Shown: one piece after another, positions 13,242 to 17,628 of the stretch
Layout: every line of letters begins with the position of its first letter
How positions within the stretch are numbered: the stretch's first letter is position 1
Origin: a virus
Lineage: Duplodnaviria; Heunggongvirae; Uroviricota; Caudoviricetes
Virus record (IMG/VR): IMGVR_UViG_2718218453_000003
Coordinates: 1 to 39,971 of that record
Length of the DNA: 39,971 nt
Reading direction: 5' to 3' (one strand)
The notes under the pieces: model-generated
Seen by the model: the letters and a program-made list of their open reading frames with translations, nothing else
Told to the model about the DNA's origin: nothing
Databases searched by the model: none
Position numbers and translations under genes: made by a program

Positions 13242-13317
13242 GGCCCTTTAGCTCAGTGGTGAGAGCGAGCGACTCATAATCGCCAGGTCGCTGGTTCAAA
13301 TCCAGCAAGGGCCACCA
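13242..13317 (+). tRNA. tRNA with CAT anticodon, ileX/ileZ-like (tRNA-Ile2, formally Met by anticodon), 76 nt with CCA
   Basis: Cloverleaf checked by hand: acceptor GGCCCTT/AAGGGCC, D-stem GCTC/GAGC, T-arm GCTGG-TTCAAAT-CCAGC, anticodon loop CTCATAA. Confidence 0.85.
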
Positions 13318-13417: not shown

Positions 13418-13491
13418 GCGTTGTTAGCTCAGCCGGACAGAGCAATTGCCTTCTAAGCAATCGGTCACTGGTTCGAATCCAGTACAGCGCG
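13418..13491 (+). tRNA. tRNA-Arg (anticodon TCT), 74 nt, no encoded CCA
   Basis: Cloverleaf checked by hand: acceptor GCGTTGT/ACAGCGC, anticodon stem ATTGC/GCAAT, loop CTTCTAA, T-arm ACTGG-TTCGAAT-CCAGT. Confidence 0.85.
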
Positions 13492-14348: not shown

Positions 14349-14380
14349 CCAGCCCCTCTCCGGAGGGGCTGTTTATATTG
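14349..14380 (+). terminator. Rho-independent terminator (CAGCCCCTC-TCCG-GAGGGGCTG plus TTTATATTGATTTT)
   Basis: 9-bp GC stem, 4-nt loop, T-rich tail. Confidence 0.6.
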
Positions 14381-14405: not shown

Positions 14406-14741
14406 TTATGGACTTTGTTGTTTTAGTCCATAAGGACATATTTGCAGAATGCAACGGTTATTAAAGCATTCATTCAATACGTTATCTGTATTTGTAGGGC
14501 ATTCCTGGCTGTTTTTGATTAAATTCCAGAATGTTTTATTGAATGGTACTACGTTGTAAATGGTTACAGGTAGCACTTTGTTATTGAGCATGATACCTGT
14601 GTGAGTCAGTGTAAATATACTTTCAGGAGGTAAGAAAGCATCCGATTGATACCAGATTATTAATTTTACTTTACTCCATATGACTGAAAAAGATATTCCG
14701 CATGATGGCTGGATAACTGTATCAATCACAATCCACTTCAT
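14406..14741 (-). CDS. Hypothetical protein (111 aa) in AT-rich island, convergent with the 13632 ORF
   Basis: AGGAA RBS 5 nt upstream of ATG; promoter-like TTTACA / TATACT upstream on minus strand; no recognised family. Confidence 0.55.
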
Positions 14742-15001
14742 TTAGTTTCCTTGTTTATGCCTTGCTGGTGATGTTCTGAAAAGTATAAATGATATTTTTG
14801 AATGTAAACCATAGAGCAGAATTATTTTTCTGATGTTGTTTATTGTTTATTTAAATGCAGGGTGGTTTATATCTCGTCTTGTAGTTTATCCATGCATATC
14901 TGCTTGATAATCAAGTTTTTATTTAAGGTATGGTTTTGTGTTTTTTCTGTATTACATGTCAGGTATTTTAAAGAATTATTTTTCAGATGGTGGAAAGAAC
15001 C

Positions 15002-15190
15002 ATGGCATTTAAACACTATGATGTTGTCAGGGCGGCGGCGCCGTCAGATCTTGCGGAAAAGCTGACACATAAACTGAAAGAGGGCTGGCAGCCGTTTGGT
15101 AGTCCGGTGGCCATAACCCCTTATACCCTGATGCAGGCGATTGCAGCAGAAGGTGATGTGGTGGTCAGTGGTGCAACTGAGCCGGAGTGA
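15002..15190 (+). CDS. DUF1737-like small protein (62 aa) typical of the slot upstream of lambdoid holins
   Basis: MAFKHYDVVRAAAPSDLAEKLTHKLKEGWQPFG; position immediately upstream of holin. Confidence 0.6.
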   Translation: MAFKHYDVVRAAAPSDLAEKLTHKLKEGWQPFGSPVAITPYTLMQAIAAEGDVVVSGATEPE

Positions 15191-15497
15191 TACTACGTCA
15201 TCGTACTGGCCCGGCATTCCAGGCCATAAAAGACGGTCTGGCAGTGAGACTAAATGCACTGACGCTGACGGATATTACCAAAAATGCAACGTATGGCGTT
15301 GAGATAGAAAGTCTGGTGCTGGAGATAAATACACCGGCATCATCATAAAAAGTGAGCCAGTCAAATGGAAGGTATCGTTAAACTCACCGGTAGTGTCAGT
15401 GGATCGTCTGAGACGCTTGCATGAGTTATCAGAGCCATCAGTAGTTAACTGGTGGCTTTTTTATTGTTGTCAGCTTCCGGATAACGGGAGACGGGGT

Positions 15498-15713
15498 ATG
15501 GACCAGATGGAAAAAATCACAACAGGTGTGTCATACACCACGTCAGCGGTGGGAACGGGCTACTGGTTCCTGCAGTTGCTGGACAGGGTTTCCCCGTCTC
15601 AGTGGGCGGCAATAGGCGTGCTGGGGAGTCTGCTGTTTGGGCTGCTGACATATCTGACTAACCTGTATTTCAAAATCAGAGAGGACCGTCGTAAGGCGGC
15701 ACGGGGAGAGTAA
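15498..15713 (+). CDS. Phage-21-type pinholin (S21-like class II holin, 71 aa) with dual-start motif
   Basis: ...[55 protein letters not shown] closely matches recalled S21; two TM segments. Confidence 0.85.
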
Positions 15714-15717
15714 TTCA

Positions 15718-16068
15718 ATGACTCAAAACTATGAACTGATTGTGAAAGGGATCCGCAATTTTGAGAATAAAGTTACGGTAACTTTAGCGTTACGGGACAA
15801 AAAACGCTTTGACGGTGAAATTTTTGACCTGGACATCTCGCTGGACCGTGTTGAAGGTGCCGCGCTGGAGTTTTATGAGGCAGCAGCCAGAATGAGCATC
15901 AGACAGGTCTTCCTGGATGTTGCTGCCGGGTTATGTGAAGGGGATGAGCAGTCGCCGGAAAAGCGCCCCGTAATTTTAGAGGCGCAGAATGTATGGATAA
16001 CCTACAAAGGAAAGCTACCGGGAAGAATTACTGGTTCTCTGAAGACTCCTCCGGAATCACAACCTTAA
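15718..16068 (+). CDS. Hypothetical soluble acidic protein (116 aa) inserted between holin and endolysin
   Basis: ATG 5 nt after holin stop with GGGGAGAG RBS; no TM segment; no recognised family. Confidence 0.6.
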   Translation: MTQNYELIVKGIRNFENKVTVTLALRDKKRFDGEIFDLDISLDRVEGAALEFYEAAARMSIRQVFLDVAAGLCEGDEQSPEKRPVILEAQNVWITYKGKLPGRITGSLKTPPESQP

Positions 16069-16131
16069 GTCACTGACCGGAACAGATAAACCTGTCCGTG
16101 GGCAGAAACCGATAAATCCTGATAAATATCC

Positions 16132-16665
16132 ATGAACGCAAAAATCAGATACGGCCTGTCGGCTGCCGTTCTGGCACTGATTGCCGTCGGTGCGCCCGCG
16201 CCTGATATTCTCGACCAGTTTCTGGATGAAAAAGAAGGTAACCACACAACGGCATACCGCGATGGGTCCGGCATCTGGACCATCTGTCGGGGTGCCACGA
16301 TGGTGGATGGAAAACCCGTTTTTCCCGGTATGAAACTGTCGAAGGAAAAATGCGACCAGGTCAACGCCATTGAGCGTGATAAGGCGCTGGCATGGGTGGA
16401 GCGCAATATTAAAGTACCACTGACCGAACCACAGAAAGCGGGTATAGCGTCATTTTGTCCCTATAACATTGGCCCCGGTAAGTGTTTCCCGTCGACGTTT
16501 TATAAGCGGCTGAATGCCGGTGATCGTAAGGGTGCATGCGAGGCGATTCGCTGGTGGATAAAAGATGGTGGGCGCGATTGCCGCATACGTTCAAATAACT
16601 GCTATGGACAGGTTATTCGTCGTGACCAGGAAAGCGCATTAGCCTGTTGGGGGATAGATCAGTGA
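16132..16665 (+). CDS. SAR endolysin, T4-lysozyme-like muramidase (177 aa)
   Basis: N-terminal Gly/Ala-rich SAR segment [17 protein letters not shown]; catalytic E...D...T spacing ([16 protein letters not shown]). Confidence 0.85.
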
Positions 16666-17123
16666 GCAGAGTCGCCGCGATTATTTATGCTCTGGTTATC
16701 TGCATCATCGTCTGCCTGTCATGGGCTGTTAATCATTACCGTGATAACGCCACCGCCTACAAAGAGCAGCGCGACAAAAATGCCAGAGAACTGAAGCTGG
16801 CGAACGCGGCAATTACTGACATGCAGATGCGTCAGCGTGATGTTGCTGCGCTCGATGCAAAATACACGAAGGAGTTAGCTGATGCGAAAGCTGAAAATGA
16901 TGCTCTGCGTGATGATGTTGCCGCTGGTCGTCGTCGGTTGCACATCAAAGCAGTCTGTCAGCCAGTGCGTGAAGCCACCACCGCCTCCGGCGTGGATAAT
17001 GCAGCCTCCCCCCGACTGGCAGACACCGCTGAACGGGATTATTTCACCCTCAGAGAGAGGCTGATCACTATGCAAAAACAACTGGAAGGAACCCAGAAGT
17101 ATATTAATGAGCAGTGCAGATAG
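16662..17123 (+). CDS. Rz-like i-spanin (153 aa, GTG start overlapping endolysin stop)
   Basis: N-terminal TM segment followed by charged coiled-coil-like region; embeds Rz1 in +1 frame. Confidence 0.8.
16882..17064 (+). CDS. Rz1-like o-spanin lipoprotein (60 aa) embedded in Rz
   Basis: Signal peptide with lipobox VVVGC followed by proline-rich segment [18 protein letters not shown]. Confidence 0.8.
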
Positions 17124-17154: not shown

Positions 17155-17448
17155 TTATTGTGAGCAATACACACGCGCTTCCAGTGGAGTATAAATGCCT
17201 AAAGTAATAAAACCGAGAAATCCATTTACGAATGTTTGCTGGGTTTCTGTTTTAACAACATTTTCTGCGCCGCCACAAATTTTGGCTGCATCAACAGTTT
17301 TCTCCTGTCCAATTCCCGAAACGAAGAAATGATGGGTGATGGTTTCCTTTGGTGTTACTGCTGTCGGTTTGTTTCCAACAGTAAACGTCTGTTGAGCACA
17401 TCCTGTAATAAGCATTGCCAGAGCGGCAGAAAACAACATTTTTTTCAT
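17155..17448 (-). CDS. bor: Bor/Iss-family outer-membrane lipoprotein (97 aa)
   Basis: MKKMLFSAALAMLITGCAQQTFTV...KICGGAENVVKTETQQTFVNGFLGFITLGIYTPLEARVYCSQ matches recalled lambda Bor. Confidence 0.9.
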   Translation of the reverse strand: MKKMLFSAALAMLITGCAQQTFTVGNKPTAVTPKETITHHFFVSGIGQEKTVDAAKICGGAENVVKTETQQTFVNGFLGFITLGIYTPLEARVYCSQ

Positions 17449-17628
17449 CTTATTATCCTGCATTGTTAAAAACGGCAGAATCCTATGTGACAACAATTAA
17501 ACGATAGTTAAATGGATTGATGAAAATTAAAACTATATAGGTGGATGCTCAGCCTATCGGAGGTAGTCAGGATTTGAATGTCAGTCTGTTGTCGGCATTC
17601 TGGCAATGCAATTTGGATAAAGCGGGGA

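Follow-up and report, generated by a model that had tools for sequence, protein, structure and literature searches.

The open reading frame wedged between the pinholin and the SAR endolysin of this prophage is, on sequence comparison, a member of the YdfR/DUF1327 family of prophage genes. It lies in the window, i.e., the whole stretch of 39,971 nucleotides of viral DNA that was analysed. The original prediction had described an extra ORF with no recognisable family, and the result for the window amounts to a correction, as the ORF belongs to a family that is already catalogued. The preferred reading of its function, to which a probability of roughly 0.4 is attached, is that of a dispensable, late-expressed cytoplasmic accessory protein that would act on host RNase E, by analogy with the orthologue of E. 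coli K-12.

The window protein matches the Pfam model DUF1327 (PF07041) with 142.4 bits (E 5e-42; gathering cut-off 25 bits), residues 1-112 aligning with positions 1-92 of a model of 93. Identical DNA (100%) is found in E. coli 203740 (NZ_CP025913.1), where the CDS carries the RefSeq name 'YdfR family protein' (WP_000193264.1). The ORF also matches PHROGs 406 and 2091, both annotated as being of unknown function. No membership in an antiholin or lysis family was found, since Pfam, PHROG and NCBIfam gave no label other than DUF1327 or 'unknown function'. The ORF could have proved to be a common annotated lysis accessory gene; it is common and it is annotated, but not as a lysis gene. The PADLOC defence-system models match neither YdfR nor the distant DUF1327 members, nor six ORFs that converge on such genes.

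By megablast the gene is matched in 4313 of 5426 complete E. coli genomes (~80%), with up to nine copies per genome, and at least 80% of its length is covered in 1902 of the 5426. Much of this abundance comes from cryptic prophages. In phage records tblastn detects YdfR in 101 of 50,697; counted by organism name, all of these are labelled as Stx-converting, Escherichia or Enterobacteria phages, and they include Stx1a and Stx2c converting phages and mEp460. Most E. coli genomes, Stx1a and Stx2c phages included, have a gene of this family within a lysis cassette of the textbook kind. Escherichia-type ydfR genes, with products 74-95% identical to the window protein, also appear under the names Veillonella parvula (L018, a MAG), Bacillota (L020, a MAG) and Enterococcus faecalis (record P0068, by its label). 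Mis-binning of, or contamination by, E. coli prophage contigs is the most likely cause. The K-12 protein (P76160) shares 59 of 74 residues (80%; BLASTP E 2e-45) with the window protein over residues 1-74 and is unrelated beyond them. Its gene occupies the same slot in the Qin prophage, in the order essQ-ydfR-rrrQ-rzpQ.

The features of the region are collected in Table 1. The ORF was found at its predicted place between pinholin and SAR endolysin. The holin stop codon TAA (15711-15713) is followed by four nucleotides (ttca) and then by the ydfR ATG, and the endolysin ATG lies 63 nt beyond the ydfR stop. The ribosome-binding site held to be plausible can be assigned to the GGAG element of the table. 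Its neighbours, too, are those that had been named: a Pfam P21 holin S, a Phage_lysozyme with a SAR-type N-terminus, and Rz/Rz1. The 13-kDa product is acidic and soluble, as had been claimed, with a pI of 5.2, a GRAVY of -0.34 and no transmembrane segment (highest Kyte-Doolittle mean over 19 residues, 1.03). Having no transmembrane segment, YdfR does not fit the membrane-bound antiholins of the holin-isoform type (S21-71/S107).

Table 1. Features of the lysis region and of related loci. Positions are those of the window except where a locus is named.
Feature	Position	Strand	Description
Terminator-like hairpin	15431..15459	+	12-bp stem followed by TTTTATTGTTG; from a consensus scan; just upstream of the holin
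Class II S21-type pinholin	15498..15713	+	71 aa; Pfam PF04971 (Phage_holin_2_1, 'P21 holin S'), E 9e-33; PHROG holin
Shine-Dalgarno GGAG	15705..15708	+	within the final holin codons, 9 nt 5' of the ydfR ATG
ydfR-family gene (DUF1327)	15718..16068	+	116 aa; ATG start, TAA stop
Conserved N-terminal domain, aa 1-76	15718..15945	+	pI 4.7; beta-beta-beta-alpha fold predicted by AlphaFold2
Variable C-terminal tail, aa 77-116	15946..16065	+	pI 9.4; predicted disordered; mosaic; codons from ~16058 are junction DNA
Spacer	16069..16131	+	63 nt; no terminator, no significant RNA structure, no recognisable Shine-Dalgarno sequence for R
SAR-type endolysin (R)	16132..16665	+	177 aa; Phage_lysozyme PF00959; weakly hydrophobic, Ala/Gly-rich N-terminus
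Rz i-spanin	16647..17123	+	Pfam Phage_lysis, E 7e-54; GTG 16662, in overlap with the R stop, is the likely true start
Rz1 o-spanin	16882-17064	+	embedded in Rz; rzoD in the RefSeq twin
bor/iss	17155-17496	opposite strand	just downstream of Rz/Rz1
Tail-context DUF1327 loci	L013 3001-3576; L022 4001-4526; L023 4001-4529; L024 4001-4506; L027 3501-3986		Yersinia-type prophages

The pinholin is annotated as 'class II holin family protein' in the RefSeq twin and has the dual start Met1/Met4, reading MDQMEK in the window (15498-15515), MYQMEK in VT2-Sakai and MKSMDK in SfI (L026 1501-1518). In S21-71 the lysine of the three-residue extension gives the antiholin isoform its extra positive charge; the extension in the window has no lysine. 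The hairpin ahead of the holin is presumably read through only by Q-modified polymerase. At the other end of the cassette the RefSeq twin lists only Rz1 (rzoD) and leaves Rz without annotation, which looks like an annotation gap. Several small genes precede the cassette. Two tRNA genes (13242-13314 and 13418-13491, + strand) lie just past the Q antiterminator gene and are tRNA-Ile and tRNA-Arg in the near-identical RefSeq prophage. Between the Q gene and the lysis genes there is an STnc100 sRNA (Rfam RF02076; 14191-14380, + strand) that scores 131 bits against a gathering score of 47, and the match ends in a terminator-like hairpin (14350-14371). An ORF on the opposite strand (14406-14741), named 'anti-adapter protein IraM' in the RefSeq twin, forms a moron upstream of the lysis cassette, and phage phiSTEC1575-Stx2k has an IraM-like gene at the equivalent place. 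It is followed by a DUF1737 ORF (14987-15190, + strand; Pfam E 1e-16), a truncated pseudogene according to the RefSeq twin, and by a small ORF overlapping it (15187-15348, + strand). The head genes of the RefSeq twin hold IS21-like and IS66-family insertions (L006 23840-25963 and 27132-29830). The window has neither of them at the corresponding places (~23835 and ~25000); its morphogenesis region therefore looks intact and the prophage may be inducible.

The junction between holin and ydfR is constant. In all 16 Escherichia/Shigella loci the ydfR ATG stands four nucleotides past the stop of an S21-type holin, with the same GGAGAG-TAA/TAG junction, and the spacing is the same in the phage records for which both coordinates are listed. 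The ORF was called extra relative to classic cassettes, and a survey of related cassettes agrees: YdfR is missing from the phage-21-like SfI, where S is directly followed by R, and from VT2-Sakai, whose holin is 97% identical and whose endolysin is of the same type. In VT2-Sakai the endolysin ATG fills the very slot of ydfR, reading GGGGAGAGTAA-gctg-ATG as compared with GGGGAGAGTAA-ttca-ATG in the window. This endolysin (leader at L025 2001-2020), which is 90% similar to that of the window, has the GGAG at the 3' end of the holin gene as its Shine-Dalgarno sequence. Because the endolysin of VT2-Sakai sits in the same slot, YdfR is an insertion that captured the holin-embedded ribosome-binding site, and a dispensable one by the same comparison. 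Its optional nature is also seen in the phage records, where 436 have this holin type and 101 have YdfR, so that about three quarters of the holin records are without it.

Downstream of ydfR the endolysin is 91-99% identical in 15 of the 16 loci. The distal part of the spacer (16077-16131, ~55 nt) corresponds to the pre-endolysin leader in loci L003 and L015; the proximal 16-30 nt of this leader are found again in most of the other loci. Compared with L003 and L015, the window is ~290 nt short, and the missing stretch carries an antisense gene of phrog_2411. The spacer has no unusual RNA structure (z = -0.05), and no promoter- or terminator-like site was found on the + strand between 15460 and 16700, although a consensus scan provides only weak evidence on this point. 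As the spacer has neither a terminator-like site nor unusual RNA structure, the simplest reading is that ydfR is transcribed together with the lysis genes; the proposal to this effect is supported, the co-oriented ORF being almost certainly co-transcribed. The 20-nt leader of the window endolysin (16112-16131) contains no recognisable Shine-Dalgarno sequence. In K-12 the stop codon of ydfR and the start codon of rrrQ overlap in ATGA, an arrangement of translational coupling. Takeover of the ribosome-binding site predicts a different endolysin dosage in YdfR-positive cassettes, where endolysin translation should be lower.

The N-terminal domain of YdfR is under constraint. AlphaFold2, used for the structure prediction that had been suggested as a check, returns a confident beta-beta-beta-alpha domain of ~75 residues (pLDDT 78-92 for residues 1-73) and a disordered tail (pLDDT below 50). 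Homologues of 72-76 residues stand alone and clear the Pfam cut-off, and in phage Evi the protein is the 72-residue domain by itself. Over codons 1-72, pairwise Nei-Gojobori estimates for well-diverged pairs give dN/dS values of 0.2-0.45, with dS reaching saturation, and hence purifying selection on the protein. Together with the 142 bits to DUF1327 this shows a real gene and no chance reading frame. Conservation of the domain extends to Yersinia-type prophages, at ~25-30% identity and with an invariant (F/Y)YE motif. The tail follows other rules. Its variation among relatives yields proteins of 72 to 287 aa, and in the same pairs dS is 0.15-0.27 over codons 77-112 versus more than 1.5 for the N-domain. 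Since these codons are far less diverged than the N-domain, an intragenic recombination breakpoint is evident; homology to the L003/L015 type is lost after nucleotide 340 of the gene. Mosaic breakpoints can be placed at the holin/ydfR junction, within ydfR after about residues 76 and 112, and ahead of the R leader. Some members have long unrelated C-terminal extensions (206-287 aa; L008 1501-2307, L010 1501-2292, P0124 and P0135), and P0217 consists of two tandem DUF1327 domains. No Pfam model matches the long extensions.

K-12 YdfR is the family member with the only functional data (Gopel et al., RNA Biol 2026, PMC13232886). With RNase G as bait, a two-hybrid screen yielded a fragment comprising residues 1-72 three times, and the signals of this fragment were stronger with RNase E constructs (PMC13232886). 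The full-length protein was positive in the BACTH assay only against Rne1-597, and Rne1-598 co-eluted with Strep-YdfR from lysates that had received no nuclease treatment (PMC13232886). Bridging by RNA is possible in this co-purification because the lysate was not treated with nuclease, and DNase-resistant nucleic acid does co-purify with K-12 YdfR (PMC13232886). Direct binding of RNA by the YdfR domain is unlikely since the domain is acidic. Overexpression of K-12 YdfR changed few transcripts and left growth unaffected (PMC13232886). The interacting fragment (residues 1-72) coincides with the conserved N-domain and is 80% identical in the window protein, which narrows the functional unit to residues 1-76. 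Binding of RNase E by the window protein would thus be transferred from an orthologue with 80% identity, and against the RNase E reading it counts that the evidence comes from the K-12 paralogue only.

The mechanism that these observations suggest is as follows. A small accessory gene of lambdoid prophages has been inserted at the holin-endolysin junction and is almost certainly transcribed within the Q-dependent late operon, given that no promoter or terminator lies between holin and endolysin. It would be translated from the Shine-Dalgarno sequence embedded in the holin gene, the same element that appears to drive the endolysin in relatives lacking YdfR. The predicted product is a cytoplasmic protein of 13 kDa, made up of an acidic beta3-alpha domain of 75 residues and a basic, disordered tail that varies by recombination. 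If the K-12 data hold for the window protein, the partner of the N-domain would be the catalytic N-terminal half of RNase E (and also RNase G), with RNA co-purifying. Late in infection YdfR may then modulate the action of host RNase E on RNA, such as the long late transcript, and it would be a dispensable fitness factor outside the lysis machinery. As a side effect in cis, an endolysin leader with no recognisable Shine-Dalgarno sequence may lower endolysin translation. The late-expressed accessory protein offered as one of the two original suggestions fits a co-oriented late-operon insertion that SfI and VT2-Sakai do not have.

The wider DUF1327 family is found outside lysis cassettes as well. 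Distant stand-alone proteins of 72-99 aa, with 25-35% identity and two of them labelled Yersinia, all score above the Pfam cut-off. Their genes lie between gpM and gpL (L022, L023 and L027) or between gpI and gpJ (L013 and L024), and no holin is found near these tail-operon copies. The position of distant members in tail clusters argues against a lysis-specific role. The tail-context copies have a common leader, GCCGAAAGGCAGGAGTGAGTT-ATG, irrespective of the tail gene that precedes them. Another arrangement is seen in L029 and L030 (3476-3500), where the last ~25 nt of an S21-type holin gene (…AAGGCTGCGAGAGGAGAGTAG) precede the ydfR ATG behind a PF16080 holin, with a gap of 120 nt; this remnant was therefore probably kept as the ribosome-binding site of ydfR. 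All five tail-context loci fetched have an ORF of 74-110 aa behind DUF1327 that converges on it, and so do about half of the loci in a lysis context. These partners have strong PHROG matches in at least six unrelated families and no match to any Pfam or PADLOC model. In sequence terms DUF1327 has the behaviour of a mobile module of late operons whose cargo varies, the window copy being one without cargo, and in the tail context DUF1327 and the convergent ORF look like a mobile two-gene mini-cassette.

The other role offered for YdfR, lysis timing, is a weaker rival to the preferred reading and is somewhat disfavoured. As a cytoplasmic antiholin-like protein acting in the manner of T4 RIII or P1 LydB, YdfR would bind the basic C-terminal tail of the pinholin through its acidic domain and delay or tune triggering, and the charges of the two (N-domain pI 4.7, basic holin tail) are indeed complementary. 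In Escherichia, ydfR is constantly linked to the S21 holin 3' end (16 of 16 loci and the phage records listed), and a functional tie to the holin could explain this equally well. The holin-YdfR pair is also kept where the downstream endolysin module has been replaced (L007), and the end of the S21 holin gene persists even behind a PF16080 holin. However, the retained holin 3' end is more simply explained as the ribosome-binding site of ydfR itself. Moreover, about three in four phage records with this holin lack YdfR, VT2-Sakai manages without it despite its 97% identical holin and the same R type, holin alleles do not co-vary with alleles of the YdfR N-domain, and the distant DUF1327 genes in tail operons have no holin at all. 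Overexpression in K-12 was without effect on growth (PMC13232886), and there is no match to a PHROG or Pfam family of the lysis category. On balance, control of lysis timing is considered unlikely.

The convergent ORFs raise the possibility that YdfR is one half of a mobile two-gene cassette, in which the late-strand DUF1327 gene would serve, for instance, as regulator or antidote of a variable, lysogen-expressed moron, and the window would hold a 'solo' remnant that has lost its partner. The window does correspond to the L003/L015 arrangement minus the ~290 nt with the phrog_2411 partner, the tail-context copies keep their leader whichever tail gene precedes, and a partner with a strong PHROG match is present in all five tail-context loci (L013, L022, L023, L024 and L027) and half or so of those in the lysis context. 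Yet the partners are unrelated to each other while DUF1327 is conserved, and a specific protein-protein pairing is for this reason unlikely; the many copies lacking a partner, including those of K-12 and the window, are still under purifying selection, and neither PADLOC (for DUF1327 or partners) nor Pfam (for the partners) provides a match. This explanation is improbable as well. The same low standing is given to the view that ydfR hitch-hikes as mosaic filler in a junction that permits recombination, its sole consequence being in cis, where R would be separated from the strong holin-embedded ribosome-binding site and endolysin output lowered. Such a filler would account for the breakpoints at both ends of the gene and inside it, for the wide variation in tail length (proteins of 72-287 aa), for the window R without a Shine-Dalgarno sequence and for an abundance that resides largely in cryptic prophages. 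It does not sit well with an N-domain dN/dS of 0.2-0.45 across saturated synonymous divergence, with a domain and (F/Y)YE motif preserved as far as Yersinia-type prophages, or with the carriage of YdfR by viable phages (mEp460, Stx1a and Stx2c phages). A broader and rather speculative proposal, for which the odds are just as long, extends the RNase E reading to the family. DUF1327 would constitute a hitherto unrecognised effector class of temperate phages whose acidic beta3-alpha domain attaches, late in infection, to the catalytic half of host RNase E/G. It would be carried as a mobile mini-cassette (its own leader, DUF1327 and hypervariable convergent cargo) across at least four slots of lambdoid late operons, and might use RNase E against the colliding antisense transcript of the cargo gene.

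Cassettes that share the same holin and endolysin and either have or lack YdfR constitute natural, isogenic-like controls. Among the closest known systems is YdfR of K-12, which belongs to the same family, occupies the slot between the essQ holin and rrrQ, starts four nucleotides past the holin stop behind the same Shine-Dalgarno sequence and is 80% identical over residues 1-74. It differs from the window protein in its unrelated C-terminal tail and in its length (103 aa in K-12 versus 116 aa in the window). While ydfR overlaps the rrrQ start (ATGA) in K-12, the window has a 63-nt spacer and no Shine-Dalgarno sequence ahead of R. In addition, Qin is a cryptic prophage, whereas the late region of the window prophage looks intact.

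Other phages are known to act on RNase E. T4 Srd binds and stimulates its catalytic N-terminal half, phiKZ Dip blocks its RNA-binding segments and T7 gp0.7 phosphorylates its C-terminal half (PMC4980113). If the K-12 result transfers, YdfR would resemble T4 Srd as a small phage protein that contacts the catalytic half of RNase E, but the two are unrelated in sequence, and no sequence or structural similarity of YdfR to Srd, Dip or gp0.7 was found. Should the link to RNase E prove true in a real infection, manipulation of host RNA decay, as practised by T4, T7 and phiKZ, would extend to lambdoid phages. T4 RIII is a cytoplasmic, soluble antiholin (PMC8385771) and P1 LydB is a soluble antiholin encoded beside the holin LydA (PMC9025707). 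Like these, YdfR is small and soluble, and its gene directly adjoins that of a holin in a lysis cassette; in contrast to them YdfR is missing from most cassettes with the same holin and is found in tail operons, and there is no homology.

Classical morons are expressed in the lysogen and bring along a promoter and a terminator of their own. Unlike the lambdoid morons (e.g., bor/iss and lom), ydfR has no flanking promoter or terminator signals, although this comes from the consensus scan and is weak evidence, and it reuses a ribosome-binding site of the late operon. In other respects it is moron-like: DUF1327 changes position together with its own leader, as one unit, and ydfR is an optional gene between collinear conserved late genes, present here and absent from VT2-Sakai and SfI, where S runs directly to R.
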